Source: a virus
DNA length: 64,000 bases
Strand: one strand, 5' to 3'
IMG/VR virus record: IMGVR_UViG_3300012954_000009
Coordinates: 1 to 64,000 of that record
Program-made: the position numbers and the translations under genes
The notes under the pieces: generated by a model
Seen by the model: the letters and a program-made list of their open reading frames with translations, nothing else
Database searches by the model: none
What the model was told of the DNA's origin: nothing
Part shown: positions 7,542 through 35,314 of the stretch, in pieces
How positions within the stretch are numbered: position 1 is the stretch's first letter
Layout: every line of letters begins with the position of its first letter

Positions 7542-8267
7542 ATGCCACAAGTTAAAATAAATATACAAGAAAAGAAAGATAGACTATCTCAAAAGCTAGA
7601 AGGATGGAAAGTTGTACAAGATTTTGTACAATCATCTGCTTTTGATTCTGTTATGCTTAACTTAATATCACAAGTTGAGAATGACAATAGATTTACACCT
7701 AAGTTTAAAGATATATTCAATGCATTTATACATTGTCCATATGATAAGCTTAAAGTTATTTTTGTAGGACAAGATCCTTATCCTCAGCTAGATGTTGCAG
7801 ATGGTATATCTTTTAGTTGTTCTAAAACAATGAAAGAGCAGCCATCATTAAGATATATTTTTGATGAGATTGAACGTACTGTTTATTCACCAAAAATAGA
7901 TAAAGATGAGTCAACTATACTTAGAGAAGGATATAATCCAGATCTAAAAAGATGGTCAAAACAAGGAGTTCTTATGCTTAATACAGCACTTACTGTAGCA
8001 ATAGGTAAGATTGGTTCTCATTATGATATATGGAAACCTTTTGCTTCATACTTATTTACTGAGTTAAATAAAAGAGATGACTTAGTATTTGTATGCTTAG
8101 GTAAAAAAGCAGAACAATGGGAAAGTTATATGAATAATAATCATGTTATAAAAGTAACACACCCAGCATCTGCTGCATATAAAGGTGGTAAGTGGAACTC
8201 ACAGGACCTATTTAATCAAGTCAATAATTACCTAGAATCTATAGACAAATCTTTGATAGTCTGGTAG
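7542..8267 (+). CDS. ung: Uracil-DNA glycosylase family 1
   Basis: GQDPY catalytic motif, QGVLMLN, HPAS. Confidence 0.95.
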   Translation: MPQVKINIQEKKDRLSQKLEGWKVVQDFVQSSAFDSVMLNLISQVENDNRFTPKFKDIFNAFIHCPYDKLKVIFVGQDPYPQLDVADGISFSCSKTMKEQPSLRYIFDEIERTVYSPKIDKDESTILREGYNPDLKRWSKQGVLMLNTALTVAIGKIGSHYDIWKPFASYLFTELNKRDDLVFVCLGKKAEQWESYMNNNHVIKVTHPASAAYKGGKWNSQDLFNQVNNYLESIDKSLIVW

Positions 8268-8304
8268 ATTTTTTGTATTTTTAAAGGCTCAAAAACCAAT
8301 AAAT

Positions 8305-8883
8305 ATGTGGGAACTTTTTCAGAAAGTTTTGGCTCATGGTATATCACCAAATCAATGCTTTCTACTATTTAGTATACATAACAAAACTACTCCTAGTACA
8401 TACATAAAAGAAGATTATGATGAACTTGTAGAGCAGGGATATATAAAAGATAAAGAGCTCACACCAGATGCTCTTAAGATCATTACCCAATTAGATAATT
8501 ATTTTATTATAAACAAGAAGAAAACTACTAAGCAGTTGCTTGGTAAGTCTGGTACTTTAAATATAAAACAGTACCGTGAAATATTTCCACCTGGTAAATT
8601 ACCATCAGGTGTGCCATCAAGAAACAATGTAAAGATACTTACAGAAAATTTTAGATGGTTCTTTAGTGAATATGATTATACATGGGAAGAAATTATAAAG
8701 GCTACTAAAATGTATGTAAATGAATATAGAGATAATCAATATATGTATATGCAGAATAGTCAGTATTTTGTTTCTAAACAAGATAAGCATAGAGTGAAAA
8801 GATCACAACTAGCAGACTACTGTGATATGATCCGTGATGGAGTTACAGTAGAAGAGAAACACTTTAAAGAAAAAGTTGTATGA
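8305..8883 (+). CDS. Putative replication initiator / helicase loader
   Basis: Directly upstream of DnaB with ATGA overlap; wHTH-like N-terminus and FPPGK...WEEIIKATKMYV...YF C-domain. Confidence 0.55.
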   Translation: MWELFQKVLAHGISPNQCFLLFSIHNKTTPSTYIKEDYDELVEQGYIKDKELTPDALKIITQLDNYFIINKKKTTKQLLGKSGTLNIKQYREIFPPGKLPSGVPSRNNVKILTENFRWFFSEYDYTWEEIIKATKMYVNEYRDNQYMYMQNSQYFVSKQDKHRVKRSQLADYCDMIRDGVTVEEKHFKEKVV

Positions 8884-26637: not shown

Positions 26638-26759
26638 TATCTTCCTTGTCCTCTATATTTCTTTTTAAATCCTTTCTGACCCTTGCTTGCATTTTTTGAA
26701 TGCACACCTGGTCTTTTAGTATTCACTTTGAAGCTGTAATCAACCTTCTTTAGTCTCAT
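26637..26759 (-). CDS. Small basic protein ending KKYRGQGR, 40 aa (absent from ORF track)
   Basis: MRLKKVDYSFKVNTKRPGVHSKNASKGQKGFKKKYRGQGR. Confidence 0.8.
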   Translation of the reverse strand: MRLKKVDYSFKVNTKRPGVHSKNASKGQKGFKKKYRGQGR

Positions 26760-26985
26760 CTTTTTTACTTCTAAAAACTTTACCAGCTTCCGCTATACCA
26801 AAACTTCCTAATGTAATGATAACAAAAGAATTATATATGTATTCTTGTATCTGGAGTTCTTTTCCCCATAAACCGGTAGCAATATCTACTACACCAAATA
26901 TAACCATCATTGTAAATGCTGCAAATCCTACCACATTCTTTTCGTTAATGTCATTATCATCCTTAAATATATCACTAAACGCCAT
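26740..26985 (-). CDS. Two-TM membrane protein (holin candidate)
   Basis: Two TM helices, charged C-terminus. Confidence 0.65.
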   Translation of the reverse strand: MAFSDIFKDDNDINEKNVVGFAAFTMMVIFGVVDIATGLWGKELQIQEYIYNSFVIITLGSFGIAEAGKVFRSKKDETKEG

Positions 26986-27954: not shown

Positions 27955-28827
27955 TTATCTGAGTCTACCACACTTTACTAAAAACTTAAAGTAGTTCATA
28001 CTTGTAAAGTAGTGCAGGTTTCTATATTTATTAGGATTGAAGTTCTGCAGTCTAGTCTGGGTATATGTATCTTCTTCTAAAACTCTTATGTTCAGATCTT
28101 TAGCTGTCATATTATTATTAATTAAATAATTTTTGAAGTCTTTTACAAAATCATCTGTCTTTACTCTACAAGAAAAGTATTGAGTGTTAGGTTTAGAAGG
28201 ATAGAGGCTTGTTACATTTAGTAAGAAGAATAAAGAATTTAAAAGTTTATCTGTGGTTCTTGATTTATAATAAGACACCTCAGCTATAAGAACATCTAGA
28301 GGATCAATTCTAGATGATGTTACTTCTATAAATAAATGTTTGTATGTTTTGTCAACATTAGTGTAGTTGTCTAAGGAAATATTATTGGTTAAGTATAACT
28401 CTTTAAACTTGTATGCATGCATACCATATACATTAGAGTTGTCTATAGTTTTTATAGTATCTTTTATGATCCGGATGTTGGGGCGTAATCTTATCTTATT
28501 TATTAAATCCTGAATAAAAACATTAGAGCCTGTATTAATATGATAAATAGAATAGTCTGTATACTTTTTATTATCTAAAGTCTTTATGTGCTTTAGCGGG
28601 CCCTGCAGCTGATACTTTGCATCAACAAAAGAAAGATCTTTATTTATAGAGTCTATGTAGTTTTTATTGTTAACCCACTGCATGTGAACTCTAGCATCTG
28701 ATACTTGCCAGGCACCACCTAAATTAGATTCTTTATCTATTATACAAAGTTGTAGATCTCTATATGAATTTATATAGCAGTCTAACAGAAAAGATATATT
28801 TGATGATAAGTATATCTTATCATACAT
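27955..28827 (-). CDS. Degenerate FAD/NAD(P)-binding Rossmann-like protein
   Basis: IIDKESNLGGAW resembles the NAD_binding_8 GG motif; GxGxxG is absent. Confidence 0.55.
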   Translation of the reverse strand: MYDKIYLSSNISFLLDCYINSYRDLQLCIIDKESNLGGAWQVSDARVHMQWVNNKNYIDSINKDLSFVDAKYQLQGPLKHIKTLDNKKYTDYSIYHINTGSNVFIQDLINKIRLRPNIRIIKDTIKTIDNSNVYGMHAYKFKELYLTNNISLDNYTNVDKTYKHLFIEVTSSRIDPLDVLIAEVSYYKSRTTDKLLNSLFFLLNVTSLYPSKPNTQYFSCRVKTDDFVKDFKNYLINNNMTAKDLNIRVLEEDTYTQTRLQNFNPNKYRNLHYFTSMNYFKFLVKCGRLR

Positions 28828-29131
28828 TCTTTAATCTCTCATTTTCTTTTTCAAGGAATGCAACTTTAGTGCGCAGTTCACTAACTTCTTGTGTTAGAGA
28901 TAAGATTTGACCTCTCATGACATCTTTTTCTTGTGAGCTGTCTGCTAAGAGGCTCTCAAGTCTTTTTACTCTACCTCTAAGGTCATCTCTATATAAGTTT
29001 TGATCATTTTTTTCAGCCATATTTTTTCTTGCGTTTAGTTTCATTCTATTCTCGTAGAATCTCCAAGCACCAGCTGAGAATAAAACAGTAATGAGAGTTA
29101 TAATTATTGTTACTAAGCTTTCTTCAATCAT
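28820..29131 (-). CDS. TM plus coiled-coil protein (holin/lysis accessory candidate)
   Basis: N-terminal TM, long heptad repeat. Confidence 0.7.
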   Translation of the reverse strand: MIEESLVTIIITLITVLFSAGAWRFYENRMKLNARKNMAEKNDQNLYRDDLRGRVKRLESLLADSSQEKDVMRGQILSLTQEVSELRTKVAFLEKENERLKNV

Positions 29132-29171: not shown

Positions 29172-29190
29172 CTATTATAATATACAAAGA
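29172..29190 (-). promoter_or_regulatory. Putative late promoter
   Basis: TCTTTGTATATTATAATAG on the - strand. Confidence 0.55.
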
Positions 29191-29526: not shown

Positions 29527-30507
29527 ATGAACGGAAACATCTTTAGTTCAAGGGTAAATATTATGCCTTATGAATATCCACAACTACTGAAATATAAAGA
29601 CGCAATCAGACATTCCTACTGGATTGATACTGAATATAATTTTACAGAAGATATATCTGACTTTAGATCTAAGATAACTGATGAAGAAAAAGAAGTTATT
29701 AAAAGAACTATGCTAGCAATAGCCCAGATAGAAGTTAATGTTAAAACCTTTTGGGCAGACATGTACAAGAGAATGCCTATCACAGAAATAGGTGACGTAG
29801 GTATGACATTTGCTGAATCAGAAGTAAGACATAAAGATGCTTATGCAAGACTGTTGAGGATCCTTGGACTAGAAGATGAGTTTAAAACAGTTGTTGAACA
29901 ACCTGCAATTAAGAATAGACTTAAGTATCTAAAGAAATACTTAGATGGTACAAGATCTAAAGACAATAAGATGTATACTAAATCTGTATTACTATTCTCT
30001 CTGTTTATAGAGCACGTAAGTTTATTTAGTCAATTCTTGATTATGATGAGTTTTAACAAAGACAGGAATGTACTTAAAGGTATATCTAATGTTGTTGAAG
30101 CTACATCAAAAGAAGAAGATATACACGGTAACTTTGGTGCTGAAATTATAAACATTATAAAAAAAGAAAACCCGGATTGGTTTGATGAAGAGTTTAATAA
30201 ACTAGTATACTCTGCATGTGTTAAAGCATATGAAGCTGAGTGTGGTATTCTTGATTGGATTTTTGAGAAAGGTGAACTTTCCTTTATTCCCAAAGACACT
30301 ATACAAGAGTTTATTAAAAATAGATTTAATAACTCTTTACAGAAGATTGGTATGAGTAATTTATTTGATATCAACCAGGATCTTCTAGAGTCAACTAAGT
30401 GGTTTGATGTAGAGATTACTTCTACTAAAGAAGGAGACTTCTTCTACAAAAAACAGATAGACTATAATAAGAAAAGTAAAAGTATAACCGCAGATGATAT
30501 ATTCTAA
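29527..30507 (+). CDS. nrdB: Ribonucleotide reductase class Ia beta subunit
   Basis: Di-iron ligands QIE, ESEVRHKDAY, IEHVSLFSQF, KEEDIH; DFF..DY tail. Confidence 0.95.
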   Translation: MNGNIFSSRVNIMPYEYPQLLKYKDAIRHSYWIDTEYNFTEDISDFRSKITDEEKEVIKRTMLAIAQIEVNVKTFWADMYKRMPITEIGDVGMTFAESEVRHKDAYARLLRILGLEDEFKTVVEQPAIKNRLKYLKKYLDGTRSKDNKMYTKSVLLFSLFIEHVSLFSQFLIMMSFNKDRNVLKGISNVVEATSKEEDIHGNFGAEIINIIKKENPDWFDEEFNKLVYSACVKAYEAECGILDWIFEKGELSFIPKDTIQEFIKNRFNNSLQKIGMSNLFDINQDLLESTKWFDVEITSTKEGDFFYKKQIDYNKKSKSITADDIF

Positions 30508-30511
30508 AAAA

Positions 30512-32137
30512 ATGAAATACTCTAAATACTATTGGCTGAATGAAAATAGCCGCACCTTTTTATCAAGAGGATATATAACAGAAACACCAGAACAAAGAAT
30601 AAAAGACATAGCAAACACTGCAGAGAAGAATCTTAACATTGAGGGATTTGCACAGAAGTTTGAGGAGTATATGGCTAGAGGCTATTACTCCTTCTCTACT
30701 CCTGTGTGGATTAACTATGGTAAAGAAAAGGGACTTCCTATTAGTTGCTATGGGTCCAACGTTGATGATAACATGGACAGTATTCTAAATGCTGGTAGAG
30801 AAATAGGTATGATGTCAAAGTACGGGGGAGGTACTAGTATTTATCTAGGTAACATACGTCCTAGAGGTAGTAGTATATCAACCGGAGGGACTGCAGATGG
30901 TCCAGTACATTACGCTAAGATTTATGACACTGTGGTAGATGTATGTAAGCAATCAGAGGCTAGGCGTGGAGCATGTGCTGTATGGCTGCCCATAGATCAC
31001 ACTGACATTGGTGAGTTCTTAGATATAGGTTCAGAAGGTAATCCAATACAAAACCTTCAATACGGTGTAACTGTTACTGATGAGTGGCTTAAAGATATGG
31101 AAGCAGGTGATCCTGACAAGCGTAAAGTTTGGGCCAAGATAATCCAGAGACGTAATGAGTTTGGATTTCCTTACATCATGTATAAAGATAACTCCAACAA
31201 TAATTCACCTTATCAAGAATTGGGCTTGGAGATTACTGCATCTAATTTATGTTCTGAGATACAGCTGCCAACGGATAGCTTTAACTCGTTCGTATGTTGT
31301 CTAGGTTCAATCAACCTATTGCACTGGGATGAGTTAAAAGAAACGGACGCAATAGAAACATATGTATTGTTTCTCAATGCTGTTATGAATGAGTTCATTA
31401 CAAAGTCTCGTAATCTAACCGGTCTTAAAAGGGCATACAGATTTGCAAAAGATCATAGAGCTATAGGTCTTGGTGTACTCGGATATCACTCTTTATTTCA
31501 ATCTAAGCTTATTGAATTTGATTCGTTAGAAGCTAAACAGCTGAATCATGAAATATTCAAAACGTTAAATGAAAGAAGTAATGAAGCGTCTAAATGGCTT
31601 CATGATGCAAAAGGATATGAGTCTTTGAGAGATGGTTATGCAAATACTACACTACTTGCAGTAGCCCCTACAAAGTCTAGTTCTTTTATTCATGGTGCTG
31701 TATCTATGGGTATAGAGCCTATTAAATCTAATTACTTTATTAAAGACTTAGCAAAGTCTAAGACTGTATATAAAAATCCTTTTCTAGAGTGTGAACTAGA
31801 AAAGCATGGACTAAATACTCCTGAAGTATGGGAAGACATTCTTAAAAAAGATGGTTCCGTTCAACATCTTGACTTTCCTACAAAAGGAGTATTTAAGTCC
31901 TTTATAGAGATCTCACCAAAAGAGATCATTCTTCAAGCCGCACAAAGGCAAAAGTTTATTGATCAATCACAATCATTAAACTTAATGATTCATCCAAGTG
32001 TTCCTGCAAAAGATATAAATCAATTATATCTTTACGCTTGGAAAGAAGGAGTTAAGACTTTATACTATCAATTTAGTCAAAGCTCAGCCCAGGCTTTCTC
32101 AAGAAATATACTTGAGTGTTCTAGCTGTGAAGGTTAG
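30512..32137 (+). CDS. nrdA: Ribonucleotide reductase class Ia alpha subunit, no ATP cone
   Basis: PISC, GGG, SNLCSEI, APTKSS, DQSQSLN, KTLYY, C-terminal CSSCEG; start 30512 or 30494. Confidence 0.96.
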   Translation: MKYSKYYWLNENSRTFLSRGYITETPEQRIKDIANTAEKNLNIEGFAQKFEEYMARGYYSFSTPVWINYGKEKGLPISCYGSNVDDNMDSILNAGREIGMMSKYGGGTSIYLGNIRPRGSSISTGGTADGPVHYAKIYDTVVDVCKQSEARRGACAVWLPIDHTDIGEFLDIGSEGNPIQNLQYGVTVTDEWLKDMEAGDPDKRKVWAKIIQRRNEFGFPYIMYKDNSNNNSPYQELGLEITASNLCSEIQLPTDSFNSFVCCLGSINLLHWDELKETDAIETYVLFLNAVMNEFITKSRNLTGLKRAYRFAKDHRAIGLGVLGYHSLFQSKLIEFDSLEAKQLNHEIFKTLNERSNEASKWLHDAKGYESLRDGYANTTLLAVAPTKSSSFIHGAVSMGIEPIKSNYFIKDLAKSKTVYKNPFLECELEKHGLNTPEVWEDILKKDGSVQHLDFPTKGVFKSFIEISPKEIILQAAQRQKFIDQSQSLNLMIHPSVPAKDINQLYLYAWKEGVKTLYYQFSQSSAQAFSRNILECSSCEG

Positions 32138-32532
32138 AATTGTGAAGACTTTTGTGCTTGTTGGATTGCCTCATTTAATTCAGGCAATTCAACAGGACAC
32201 AATAAGTCCAAACCTGCTTTAAATGTTTCTTCTTTTACTCCATCAACAAATATTATAATTGTAGGAGCCATTCTAATACGGAATTCTTTTTTAGATTTAG
32301 GTGACTTAGCTACATCACATCTATAATACTGTACACCCTGTAGTTTTTTCCAGTCTTTAAAAGCATTGTCTTTATTAAACTCAGCCCAGAATTCTATAAC
32401 TACTACAGAATTACCATCATCAAACTGACTCTGACTACTTATCTTGCTATGTATATCTTTATCTGTAACCCAGCTTTGACTATATAATGTAGTTGAAAAT
32501 AAAATAAGTATAAATAAGAAAAGTGTTTTCAT
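32134..32532 (-). CDS. Exported thioredoxin-fold protein lacking CxxC
   Basis: Signal peptide; VVVIEFWAEFN...FRIRMAPTIIIFVDG. Confidence 0.8.
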   Translation of the reverse strand: MKTLFLFILILFSTTLYSQSWVTDKDIHSKISSQSQFDDGNSVVVIEFWAEFNKDNAFKDWKKLQGVQYYRCDVAKSPKSKKEFRIRMAPTIIIFVDGVKEETFKAGLDLLCPVELPELNEAIQQAQKSSQF

Positions 32533-32813
32533 CTTTGTTTTTGTATTTCATAGAGTCTCTCATCTATCTTATCAAGTTTATCCTTGATATCATCAACATC
32601 TTCTTGAGTATCCATGATAGTTTGTCTAATAAGCTCATCTTTTAGATCATATTCTGTTCTATCTATAACCGGTTTGGGAAGTTCTTTTGCTTCTTCTATA
32701 TCAGACTGTAAAGCAAACCACATACCTACAATAGTTGCTACTCCTGCCAGAATCATACCTATTGTTTTTAAGTCTAGTGTTACTTTTGTTTCTTCTCCTA
32801 TTTGCTTTGCCAT
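32529..32813 (-). CDS. Single-TM coiled-coil protein
   Basis: TM at residues ~18-35, C-terminal heptads. Confidence 0.8.
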   Translation of the reverse strand: MAKQIGEETKVTLDLKTIGMILAGVATIVGMWFALQSDIEEAKELPKPVIDRTEYDLKDELIRQTIMDTQEDVDDIKDKLDKIDERLYEIQKQR

Positions 32814-32814
32814 C

Positions 32815-34047
32815 TTATTTAAATGTATAATTAATACCTACTGATGAGTTAAATAGTTTACTATCCCATAGTTTTGCATATTCACCTTCTAAAAACACAC
32901 CAACGCTCTTGCCTATTTTCCAACCAAAGTTTACACCTGCTGAATAATCTGACCACTGTTCTGGTTTAGCATCTTCAGCAATACCACCTTGACCCCAGTT
33001 GTTTCTATTAAGATAACTAAAAGTCTCATCTCCGGCTATATACTTATGATACGGTAGTATCCAATTTGCATAAGCATGAACCCAAAAATTTCTTTTATAA
33101 TGATAAAAATCAAAACCAACTATAGGAGCAATCTCTGCAAAAGGATCTAGCTCTGCCCATCTTTCTCTGTTATATCTGTTCATCAGCTGTGTAAATACTG
33201 TCTCTCTAAACTCTAGATCTGTATCAGCAATTCTATTACCTTGTGGATCTATCCAGTACCAGTCACTTACTTCATTGCCAAACTCATCTTGTTCTGTATA
33301 GTATATATCATCATACCCATATTCAAATCCTAGAGTATACCATGGATTTATTGGATACTCTACTACAGTACCATCTGGAGCTGTAAAGGTTTCTGTTTCA
33401 TTTAACCATATCTCAATTGGATTATATCCATAAGCACGTTGATGAGTTCTTGCTATTGCACCGGCTGATATGCTAAACTTTTTACCTATTGGTAATCTTG
33501 CTCTTATTTCAGCTGATTGAAAGTTTAAGTTTATTCTACCAACTTCTCTAACCTCAGCTTTTACAATATGATATTTACCAGTATGTTTTAAAAAATATCT
33601 ATGATTATCATAGTTCTCTCCTCTAAATCTTTCTTTCTCATAGTGAAACTGATACTCTAAACCTTTAAATGCTGATGTTGGTGCAGAGAATGCTAGTTGA
33701 TTTTCTGTACCATCATAGTAGTTTCTTGGTTTTCTTTCATAATCAAATCTTGCTAGCTTACGTATACCAACGCCTATTCTATAGTCAAAAGGAAAGTCAG
33801 GTGTATTATCCTCTACTCTTGGTATGTCATAAATAGAACCGTTTGGATTAGTTCTCACAAAGTAAATGGGGTCTTTTGCTTCAATAGAATTACGTGCATC
33901 TCCTGCTGCATATACAGTACCATACTGTAAGAAGTCTTCATATATACCTTTAAAAAATCCTGGTTTTTCCTCTTGACCAAATGCAAATACACACATACAT
34001 AAAGCTAGAACTAACAGGATATACTCTTTACTTAAAATTCTTTTCAT
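32815..34047 (-). CDS. Putative outer-membrane beta-barrel protein
   Basis: Signal peptide, amphipathic aromatic beta strands, C-terminal SVGINYTFK. Confidence 0.7.
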   Translation of the reverse strand: MKRILSKEYILLVLALCMCVFAFGQEEKPGFFKGIYEDFLQYGTVYAAGDARNSIEAKDPIYFVRTNPNGSIYDIPRVEDNTPDFPFDYRIGVGIRKLARFDYERKPRNYYDGTENQLAFSAPTSAFKGLEYQFHYEKERFRGENYDNHRYFLKHTGKYHIVKAEVREVGRINLNFQSAEIRARLPIGKKFSISAGAIARTHQRAYGYNPIEIWLNETETFTAPDGTVVEYPINPWYTLGFEYGYDDIYYTEQDEFGNEVSDWYWIDPQGNRIADTDLEFRETVFTQLMNRYNRERWAELDPFAEIAPIVGFDFYHYKRNFWVHAYANWILPYHKYIAGDETFSYLNRNNWGQGGIAEDAKPEQWSDYSAGVNFGWKIGKSVGVFLEGEYAKLWDSKLFNSSVGINYTFK

Positions 34048-34388
34048 AATTTTTTCTTTTTAATTCCTTTCTTTTTTTTTCTGTTAAATAAACTAATAGT
34101 AATATTAATACTCAAACCACCTAGAACAGTTGCTGCTAAATCTTTTTTATCAAATCTATTTTTAGGGTCTGTGCTATCTAAATATTCTTTTCCAACACCG
34201 GCTAGTACAGATGTTAATACACCACCTATAAAAGCTTTCTTCTTGTCACCAGTTTCATGTAAAATGATAGCATAACCAAGACCACCTGTTATAACTCCTG
34301 CACCATAATGCAGTTTTTTATCATCAGGAATTTGTTGACCTATCATAAGGCCAGAGCATAAGAACAACAGAATTTGTATTATCTTCAT
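34044..34388 (-). CDS. YfiM/DUF2279-like membrane protein
   Basis: DDKKLHYGAG...GVGKEYLD...FDKKDLAATVLG. Confidence 0.75.
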   Translation of the reverse strand: MKIIQILLFLCSGLMIGQQIPDDKKLHYGAGVITGGLGYAIILHETGDKKKAFIGGVLTSVLAGVGKEYLDSTDPKNRFDKKDLAATVLGGLSINITISLFNRKKKKGIKKKKL

Positions 34389-34410
34389 GATACACGGTTT
34401 TCCGTTGGCT

Positions 34411-34430
34411 TATACTATAATATAACCAAT
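34411..34430 (-). promoter_or_regulatory. Putative late promoter
   Basis: ATTGGTTATATTATAGTATA on the - strand, ~22 nt upstream of ATG 34388. Confidence 0.5.
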
Positions 34431-34475: not shown

Positions 34476-34559
34476 CTACTTAGAGTTGGACCATTTATCA
34501 TCTAGTCCATCCCAGTAAATATAAACTGAATCATCAGATGACTCTTCGGGATCTGTCAT
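34476..34559 (-). CDS. Acidic micro-ORF, 27 aa (MTDPEESSDDSVYIYWDGLDDKWSNSK)
   Basis: TAATG-coupled to the stop of 34559..35314. Confidence 0.45.
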   Translation of the reverse strand: MTDPEESSDDSVYIYWDGLDDKWSNSK

Positions 34560-35314
34560 TACCACTGAAATATTTTGGGTGTATATTGTATTCCTATACC
34601 TATGTAGGGTCTTATTCTATCTGAGTACCCAATTCCAAGCTGTAGTCCAACACCAAACTCTTTTCTCTGTGATCTAGAAAAAGCTTTGAATTCATCATCT
34701 CTTTTGATTAATATTCCTTTGGCACTGTTAAACTGTAGACCAGGATAGTCAGTTTTTAAATTTACAAAAACTTCTTTAGATTTCAAATTTTGAGAAAGGC
34801 TTGCCTCTAACCATATGTCTTGTGTTAAGTTAAGACTACCAGCACCTGTTGTTATTAAAGTGTCTTTACTAAAAATAGGCATCTTAAAATCTATAACTCT
34901 TGAGCTCTTCCCAAACTTTATAGAATCAGTAAAACTTACAGGATGTATATATGTACCGTCTAGCTGTGCTATACTTGGGTCAACAACTGCCTGGAACACT
35001 ATACTATCACGTACTTCAGTTATATATTCAACAACCGTTACAGGAGGTTTATTTTTTTCATACTCTACTTCATCTCCTAACTCACTAACTTTGAGATGTA
35101 ACCCTCTTATCTCACCGTTAAGTATACCGTTCTCATCAACATAATTCTTGATTGTATCTGTTAAAGCAAGATTGTTATTAGTTATTCTTGTTACTTCCTC
35201 TTTTGCAACCCTTGTAGAATTACATTGACGCATCAATAACATAAATAATATTACAATACCTATCCCCATTACTAATTTTATATTCTTTAGTAATTGTTCT
35301 ATCACTCCCATCAT
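34559..35314 (-). CDS. Spanin-like protein (N-terminal TM, coiled coil, C-terminal amphipathic beta-hairpin)
   Basis: TM ending RQC; FGVGLQLGIGYSDRIRPYIGIGIQY C-terminus. Confidence 0.55.
   Translation of the reverse strand: MMGVIEQLLKNIKLVMGIGIVILFMLLMRQCNSTRVAKEEVTRITNNNLALTDTIKNYVDENGILNGEIRGLHLKVSELGDEVEYEKNKPPVTVVEYITEVRDSIVFQAVVDPSIAQLDGTYIHPVSFTDSIKFGKSSRVIDFKMPIFSKDTLITTGAGSLNLTQDIWLEASLSQNLKSKEVFVNLKTDYPGLQFNSAKGILIKRDDEFKAFSRSQRKEFGVGLQLGIGYSDRIRPYIGIGIQYTPKIFQW

Follow-up and report, generated by a model that had tools for sequence, protein, structure and literature searches.

We uncovered a conserved three-gene module in uncultured phages, which encodes a predicted outer-membrane β-barrel protein, a small inner-membrane protein with a periplasmic coiled coil and an exported thioredoxin-fold protein lacking active-site cysteines. 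We tentatively propose that this module works across the envelope in the outer-membrane step of host lysis, a reading that we favor while giving it somewhat less than an even chance. The module was found in a 64,000-nucleotide stretch of viral DNA (hereafter the window), which comprises positions 1–64,000 of the 102,473-bp IMG/VR record IMGVR_UViG_3300012954_000009, itself estimated to be 88% complete. Its core genes lie on the minus strand and code for proteins of 410 amino acids (aa; the barrel, 32815–34047), 94 aa (the coiled-coil protein, 32529–32813) and 132 aa (the thioredoxin-fold protein, 32134–32532). They are located at the end of a run of giant genes, whose products include proteins of 1881 and 4943 aa, and are bounded by a giant virion- or cargo-protein gene on one side and oppositely oriented ribonucleotide reductase genes on the other. 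Among isolated phages, the 4943-aa protein finds its sole matches in crAss-like Bacteroides phages, in their putative RNA polymerases, which marks the source as a crAss-like phage, and the single sequencing run in which the full stretch is present is a marine metagenome, perhaps the sample of origin; the sequence thus indicates an uncultured, crAss-like, marine phage.

Distribution and co-occurrence of the three genes

Gene content was counted over 80 related viral loci. The coiled-coil gene is found beside the barrel gene in 76 of these and a gene for a thioredoxin-fold protein without the CxxC motif in 77, the latter falling into two subtypes (35 and 42 loci); in most of the loci where one of the two partners has no match, the trio runs up to a contig or locus end. 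The order of the genes takes two forms, namely barrel–coiled coil–thioredoxin fold and coiled coil–thioredoxin fold–barrel, with the thioredoxin-fold gene always directly following the coiled-coil gene. The phage contigs bearing the trio are about 60–120 kb in length. A first-pass annotation of this DNA had described a four-gene operon, in which the trio is preceded by a gene for a 114-aa YfiM-like protein (34044–34388, minus strand), and had made the proposal hinge on the co-occurrence of these genes in other genomes. Such co-occurrence is indeed seen for the barrel, coiled-coil and thioredoxin-fold genes, but it does not extend to the YfiM-like gene, which was recovered with the 114-aa query by tblastn in just nine of the 80 loci and at varying positions; hence, we abandon the quartet as a unit in favor of the three genes that the relatives keep.

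The barrel family comprises 2463 members in a word-indexed metagenomic database, and an exhaustive search recovered 250 representatives at 50% clustering. The protein-atlas clusters nearest to the barrel are 98–100% viral. The window barrel and a distant member, searched by tblastn against 50,697 phage records, returned no match, and blastn of the DNA against these likewise returned none; among 185,579 species genomes, a search with a closer alignment recovered the barrel on four contigs of metagenome-assembled genomes only, probably mis-binned phage DNA, and in no genome of a cultured isolate. From this distribution in sequence searches the family appears to be restricted to phages. Contigs of metagenome-assembled genomes that carry the barrel gene (L082, L084 and L085) are from bins labeled Woesearchaeota and Arcobacter, and are most likely mis-binned phage contigs. 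On the structural side, an unnamed 342-aa viral UniProt protein in BFVD (A0A516LKJ4) was recovered by Foldseek with an E-value of 1e-28, template modeling (TM) scores of 0.71/0.84 and 21% identity to the barrel; going by the models, it is a distant member of the family that is public but unannotated. The barrel is also strongly retained in sequence: it is 55–76% identical between phages whose 1881-aa virion protein is about 40% identical, and its conservation is nearly as strong as that of ribonucleotide reductase.

The genes are tightly packed in the window. The 114-aa and 410-aa genes overlap by an ATGA, the 410-aa and 94-aa genes are separated by a single nucleotide, and the 94-aa and 132-aa genes again share an ATGA. 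Each product has a single N-terminal hydrophobic segment, spanning residues 2–21 in the 114-aa, 3–28 in the 410-aa, 11–39 in the 94-aa and 4–22 in the 132-aa protein. All four minus-strand open reading frames (ORFs) of the first-pass annotation, together with the coupling it reported at the three junctions and the signal peptide or transmembrane segment it assigned to every product, were accordingly recovered as described.

Predicted folds and export of the encoded proteins

The AlphaFold2 (AF2) model of the 410-aa protein, built with 33 diverse relatives, has a predicted local distance difference test (pLDDT) score of 82.4, a predicted TM-score (pTM) of 0.72 and 14 long strands. We read it by its strands and the gaps between them: the odd gaps are of 35, 2, 4, 43, 36, 36 and 2 residues and the even gaps of 31, 3, 3, 5, 2 and 4 residues. 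With the exception of one long even gap at 98–128, this combination of long odd and short even gaps is the usual pattern of outer-membrane barrels. Foldseek searches with the model recovered outer-membrane barrels exclusively, at low TM-scores, and an exhaustive VIA-align search placed Omp33 (Z 11.4), CymA (11.3) and OmpG (10.8) at the top, closely followed by the barrels of an autotransporter, TamA, BcsC, LpxR (Z 9.5) and OMPLA (9.1), with the nucleoside channel Tsx at Z 8.4. The three best matches extend over 159–213 residues and share the strand count of 14 with the 410-aa protein, but their identity to it is merely 9–11% and the root-mean-square deviation is 4–6 Å. Hence, we read these model-based matches as pointing to a shared architecture and draw no functional inference from them. 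An enzymatic role was considered and set aside, as LpxR and OMPLA score no better than the non-enzymatic barrels and no catalytic motif could be assigned.

At the sequence level, the 410-aa protein found no match in Pfam (E up to 1), PHROG, NCBIfam or PDB, and the Pfam search at this threshold likewise returned neither the Ail/Lom family nor PF24653; the latter, a family of cyanophage outer-membrane-protein-like domains, is a language-model neighbor of the barrel at 0.92, which we treat as a lead and nothing more. The protein ends in GINYTFK, that is, a G-I-N-Y-T-F motif with one extra lysine, which fits a β-signal, and the C-terminal pattern G-x-N-Y/F-x-hydrophobic is kept across the family alignment; further, the region around residues 240–270 is rich in acidic and aromatic residues. 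Thus, the barrel architecture, the β-signal and the acidic aromatic loop proposed from the first reading are all supported. The stretch best conserved among divergent members is VGIRKLARFDYE (score 0.75), where strand 2 reaches its predicted periplasmic end and runs into its long turn, and conservation is lowest (0.30–0.35) in L1, L4 and L6, which are predicted to be surface loops; the inside–outside topology here is assigned by the standard rule for such proteins. If this topology holds, the pattern of conservation suggests a conserved periplasmic contact over recognition at the cell surface.

The 94-aa protein has an N-terminal transmembrane segment (approximately residues 17–37), followed by a charged helical tail of about 57 aa that is predicted to form a periplasmic coiled coil, in keeping with its earlier assignment as an inner-membrane anchor. 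In an alignment of 30 members of its family, K16, E54, K58, D59, R63, E85 and R86 are invariant, and the C-terminus bears a conserved DERLYE motif. It shows weak matches to PHROG 1009 and PHROG 6664, both of unknown function. A second protein of similar architecture, with a transmembrane segment and a coiled coil (103 aa; 28820–29131, minus strand), is encoded elsewhere in the window; it matches PHROG 6664 at 1.9e-4 and PHROG 2658 (“hol-like”) at 2e-7, and weakly the NCBIfam model TIGR03495 “Rz-like LysB” (E 0.0019).

The 132-aa protein reads VVVIEFWAEFNKDN (WAEFN) in place of the WCGPC of thioredoxin. Its membership in the fold is supported by a match to Pfam Thioredoxin (PF00085) at 24.2 bits against a cut-off of 23.5, by matches of the family profile to PDB thioredoxins down to 4e-10 and by an AF2 model with pLDDT 86.7 that aligns with thioredoxins at TM-scores of 0.70–0.78. 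In an alignment of 39 thioredoxin-like sequences, CxxC is present in none, the cis-proline (P90) is invariant, glutamine stands at the end of the signal peptide in all 39 and a conserved lipobox cysteine is absent. Judged by its sequence, this fold is incapable of redox chemistry for want of the active-site cysteines, as the first-pass annotation had recognized in calling it a redox-dead periplasmic thioredoxin, and the protein would most likely act as a chaperone or an adaptor for binding. All 39 sequences also end in F or Y (…SKF, …SQF, …ASY, …QRF); a soluble periplasmic protein would not usually have such an aromatic C-terminus, which recalls C-terminal docking signals or those of outer-membrane proteins. 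Five metagenomic proteins of 214–229 aa, in which the coiled-coil and thioredoxin-fold regions are fused, were considered as evidence for contact between the two and rejected as frameshift or read-through artifacts of the overlapping genes: all are singletons, most keep a signal-peptide-like hydrophobic stretch in mid-protein (with the initiator methionine in four) and the C-terminal motif of the coiled coil is gone in two of the five.

Of 32 barrels, 26 have a hydrophobic core followed by a small residue and glutamine ([ASGTN]Q), as do 38 of 39 thioredoxin-fold proteins, and the 410-aa protein of the window likewise has a signal peptide with glutamine at +1, these signal-peptide calls being made by a heuristic on the core and the [ASGTN]Q motif and not by SignalP. 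Glutamine at the +1 position is the rule for Bacteroidetes signal peptidase I substrates (PMC5837995). The pattern thus supports the export of both proteins by Sec and signal peptidase I, and suggests, from the sequences, a host in the Bacteroidota.

Linkage to lysis genes

An endolysin-like gene is encoded within 1.5 kb of the trio in 54 of the 80 loci, a figure that rises to 58 at distances of up to 5 kb. Three unrelated endolysin types are involved: a Peptidase_M15_3 protein (Pfam 7e-15; PHROG 894 “endolysin” 1e-25), a 201-aa protein of PHROG 3000/33083 “endolysin” (5.5e-35 / 2.2e-13) and, in a third group of loci, a Glucosaminidase protein (1.4e-16) located 2–3 kb downstream. Most of these cassettes also hold a separate holin-family gene, with neighbors matching PHROG 3427 (1e-10) or, weakly, Phage_holin_4_1 (~1e-3) and PHROG 199 (3.6e-4). 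In a more distant clade, the gene order is tail fiber, coiled coil, thioredoxin fold, barrel, Peptidase_M15_3 endolysin and PHROG 3427 holin; another group has, flanking the trio, genes for a small two-transmembrane protein, the 201-aa PHROG 3000/33083 protein and a protein with a weak Phage_holin_4_1 match. In a maximum-likelihood tree of the barrel, the adjacency to the M15 gene is found in the deepest branches, and the type of the neighboring endolysin switches several times with the trio remaining beside an endolysin.

In the window, the gene for an 81-aa holin-like protein with two transmembrane segments (26740–26985, minus strand), which has no family match, lies 5 kb from the trio among genes for small, very basic proteins; by tblastn its product is 62–73% identical to those of genes adjoining the barrel gene in 16 related loci (L006–L026 and L036), where the homologues flank the trio. 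From these comparisons the sub-clade that includes the window is best described as having lost the adjacency between the trio and the lysis genes. A further small exported protein is seen in one group of loci, directly after the trio (in locus L031 at 8134–8562): it has 142 aa, a signal peptide and a small-barrel-like character, ends in GFGLRF, and its gene is followed by a glycosyltransferase-like gene and then another gene for a protein with a transmembrane segment and a coiled coil.

A proposed role in the outer-membrane step of lysis and its alternatives

Under our proposal, all three proteins would leave the cytoplasm through the Sec pathway of the host. Once its signal peptide is cleaved, the 410-aa protein would take its place in the outer membrane as a 14-stranded barrel; the 94-aa protein would be held in the inner membrane by its one helix, with the coiled coil of about 57 residues projecting into the periplasm; and the thioredoxin fold would be soluble in the periplasm, serving there as an adaptor for binding or as a chaperone. 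With the cell wall removed by the endolysin, the trio would break or open the outer membrane, thereby doing the job of spanins of the Rz/Rz1 type with a barrel instead of a lipoprotein as the outer-membrane partner. We infer here that the components are in physical contact, that they act late and that they have a membrane-breaking activity. Spanins and the cationic peptide of phiKT are the means of outer-membrane disruption hitherto recognized; that the trio constitutes a third kind of device, with a BAM-inserted barrel as anchor, a thioredoxin-fold adaptor and an inner-membrane coil, is conceivable, and we regard it as rather doubtful.

The nearest parallel is with the two-component spanins, such as lambda Rz/Rz1. 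The 94-aa protein has the predicted layout of an inner-membrane spanin (i-spanin), namely an N-terminal transmembrane segment and a periplasmic coiled coil in N-in/C-out orientation (PMC6139136); its gene is directly followed by one for an exported partner; and in most relatives the genes stand beside those for an endolysin and holin, the proposed role being likewise in the lysis of the outer membrane. In contrast to spanins, the partner is a folded thioredoxin domain with a type I signal rather than a lipoprotein, the outer-membrane part is a barrel, the coiled coil is one short segment (~57 aa) in place of CC1-linker-CC2, and there are neither conserved cysteines for disulfide dimers nor sequence matches to spanin families. 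Thus, lacking a lipoprotein partner, the conserved cysteines and a family match, the trio does not qualify, by its sequences, as a spanin in the strict definition. For the thioredoxin-fold component, a parallel is offered by TraF of the F plasmid, another exported, CxxC-less version of the fold that serves an envelope-spanning apparatus and not redox chemistry, as predicted here for the phage protein. One relative of the 132-aa protein shows a faint match to Pfam TraF (E 0.075), but there is no significant sequence relation between the two, and TraF is larger and belongs to conjugation rather than lysis cassettes.

Several observations weigh against a role in lysis. The sub-clade of the window, accounting for 13 of the 78 rows of the tree, has the trio away from the lysis genes; moreover, a search of the whole 102-kb record found no match to the M15 protein of locus L047, Glucosaminidase, Amidase_2, Peptidase_M15_4 or PHROG 894, the PHROG 3427 holin reached only an E-value of 0.26 against it, and Peptidase_M15_3 was likewise absent from five close relatives. 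The wall-degrading enzyme of this sub-clade may have escaped recognition in these searches or be encoded in the missing 12% of the genome. None of the same-strand embedded ORFs has a lipobox, leaving the trio without a lipoprotein partner of the o-spanin (outer-membrane spanin) kind; the periplasmic helix of the 94-aa protein is short, reaching about 8 nm when fully extended; no way is known by which a β-barrel drives membrane fusion or rupture; and no cultured phage among the 50,697 phage records has a member of the barrel family. Lysis cassettes often lie at module boundaries where accessory genes gather, and the adjacency of the trio to them may therefore partly reflect position and not function.

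The first-pass annotation had offered superinfection exclusion, nutrient import and non-canonical lysis or egress as functions, of which the last is favored by the gene context (54 of 80 loci), and import has nothing in that context but the reductase genes to its credit. The alternative with the most to commend it is that the trio acts in superinfection exclusion or the protection of progeny, with the barrel masking or disorganizing a receptor and the coiled-coil and thioredoxin-fold proteins blocking the passage of DNA or protein through the periplasm. There is precedent for this in Lom of lambda, which acts on LamB, and Llp of T5, which acts on FhuA; in the second clade the trio directly follows a tail-fiber gene, much like lom, and its place in the window is after genes coding for injected cargo proteins. 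Phage-encoded outer-membrane barrels are also common: a 2026 preprint on huge phages (doi 10.64898/2026.10.24.761521) reports many of them and, citing the Lom–LamB case, proposes exclusion at the level of the receptor. Like these barrels, lambda Lom and the cyanophage proteins of PF24653/DUF680, the 410-aa protein is a phage-encoded, Sec-exported barrel for insertion into the host membrane; however, it has 14 strands, as against eight in Lom and 6+6 in the cyanophage type, belongs to a different family with no similarity to Ail/Lom and is always accompanied by a coiled-coil anchor and a dead thioredoxin and linked to lysis genes. That preprint contains no occurrence of “thioredoxin” and no mention of the trio barrel family. 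Against exclusion, virulent phages usually have such genes in their early set, but the trio is co-directional with the late and lysis genes; conservation of the barrel is lowest in its predicted surface loops and highest in a periplasmic stretch; and the trio is kept beside the endolysin gene despite three exchanges of endolysin type. On balance, exclusion strikes us as unlikely, if with a real claim to attention.

It is also conceivable that the trio controls the timing of lysis, the 94-aa protein being a holin or antiholin with a single transmembrane segment like T of T4, the thioredoxin fold a regulator like RI and the barrel a relay of signals from outside. The resemblance of the 94-aa protein and its paralogue to small lysis membrane proteins (PHROG 2658 “hol-like”), the constant adjacency and translational coupling of the coiled-coil and thioredoxin-fold genes and the location of the module beside holin genes would all be accommodated. 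We nevertheless hold this to be improbable, given that most cassettes already have a separate holin-family gene, that the proteins do not resemble T, RI or RIII in sequence and that an obligatory, strongly conserved barrel of 400 aa is left unexplained. Very improbable, in our estimate, is an auxiliary uptake channel, for nucleosides for instance, which would feed phage DNA synthesis together with the adjacent ribonucleotide reductase. In 27 of the 80 loci, the genes for this enzyme, of class Ia, are no more than a few kb from the trio, in three arrangements, and Tsx is among the structural matches of the barrel, but its score is no better than that of many other barrels. The second clade, with more than 40 loci, has lysis genes and no reductase nearby; the coiled-coil partner finds no explanation; and the 132-aa thioredoxin fold cannot serve the reductase because it is exported and without active-site cysteines.

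Lineage-specific neighbors and the upstream region

The YfiM-like protein of the window (114 aa), a small membrane protein or lipoprotein with a poly-lysine tail, is a lineage-specific accessory. Its alignment with the NCBIfam model NF008028 “YfiM family lipoprotein” has an E-value of 8.7e-6 and covers 86 of 106 profile positions, but the 25.9 bits are far below the cut-off of 117; it also matches PHROG 26616 “lipoprotein” at 2e-7, and Pfam DUF2279 returned no match to it at E up to 1. It further differs from YfiM (DUF2279) in its atypical lipobox (LFLC), with type I cleavage before a glutamine as the alternative, and in the poly-lysine tail, which is foreign to YfiM. A large protein database holds only 12 relatives, one of which was named YfiM by the Joint Genome Institute (JGI). 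The contig of the closest barrel relative (94% identity) also carries a YfiM-like gene, whose product is 58% identical.

Upstream of it and outside the conserved module is a gene for a 251-aa protein (34559–35314, minus strand) with an N-terminal transmembrane segment, a coiled coil and a β-rich C-terminus ending in hairpin-like repeats of glycine and aromatic residues. Its match to Pfam DUF6808 is marginal (24.6 bits against a cut-off of 24.4), and no homologue was found in the 80 related loci or in a scan of viral contigs. Together, the two genes make up an insertion of 1.3 kb that parts the barrel gene from the 1881-aa gene and is shared by none of the 80 relatives; both are absent from locus L042, the nearest barrel relative in the tree (78% identity), and in relatives such as this the barrel gene directly follows the 1881-aa gene. 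By comparison of these sequences, the two are lineage-specific insertions and the four-gene unit is a local elaboration of the three-gene module. In this genome, the trio has gained the YfiM-like and 251-aa genes upstream and has lost its place beside the lysis genes.

A 170-bp gap precedes the 114-aa gene and bears a candidate promoter motif, TATATTATAGTA (34413–34424, minus strand), 25 nucleotides upstream of the ATG, and a second copy, TATATTATNNTA, at 29173–29184 precedes the paralogous 103-aa coiled-coil gene. The late-promoter motif that had been claimed here is therefore present as a sequence; its role as a promoter is putative and its enrichment weak, with four copies in the window against 1.5 expected and eight of 100 shuffles reaching four. 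We consequently rejected it as an enriched promoter, as the excess is not significant and the two upstream regions align poorly past their AT-richness. A scan for sigma-70 promoters gave background levels only.

On the other side of the trio, the ribonucleotide reductase genes (29527–32137 in the window, with counterparts in L003–L029, L042 and L081) are of two sequence types, with about 82% and about 40% identity to that of the window. This neighborhood probably marks a module boundary.

Implications for phages of the Bacteroidota

The breach of the outer membrane by Bacteroidota phages is poorly understood. In a survey of 677 phages of Gram-negative hosts, no spanin was found in 91 (Kongari et al. 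2018; PMC6139136), and for Bacteroidetes phages a survey of 2025 lists unimolecular spanins only (PMC12596118). The barrel family has thousands of members in ocean metagenomes. In the case of exclusion, the trio would be the first device of that sort to have an obligatory layout across three compartments. If it is instead a third kind of device for disrupting the outer membrane, it would be widespread in marine Bacteroidota phages and would explain why so few spanins have been recognized in the phages of this phylum. If it supplies the missing outer-membrane step, the question could be tested directly with three small genes, and the trio could serve as a marker by which lysis cassettes are annotated in uncultured marine phages.

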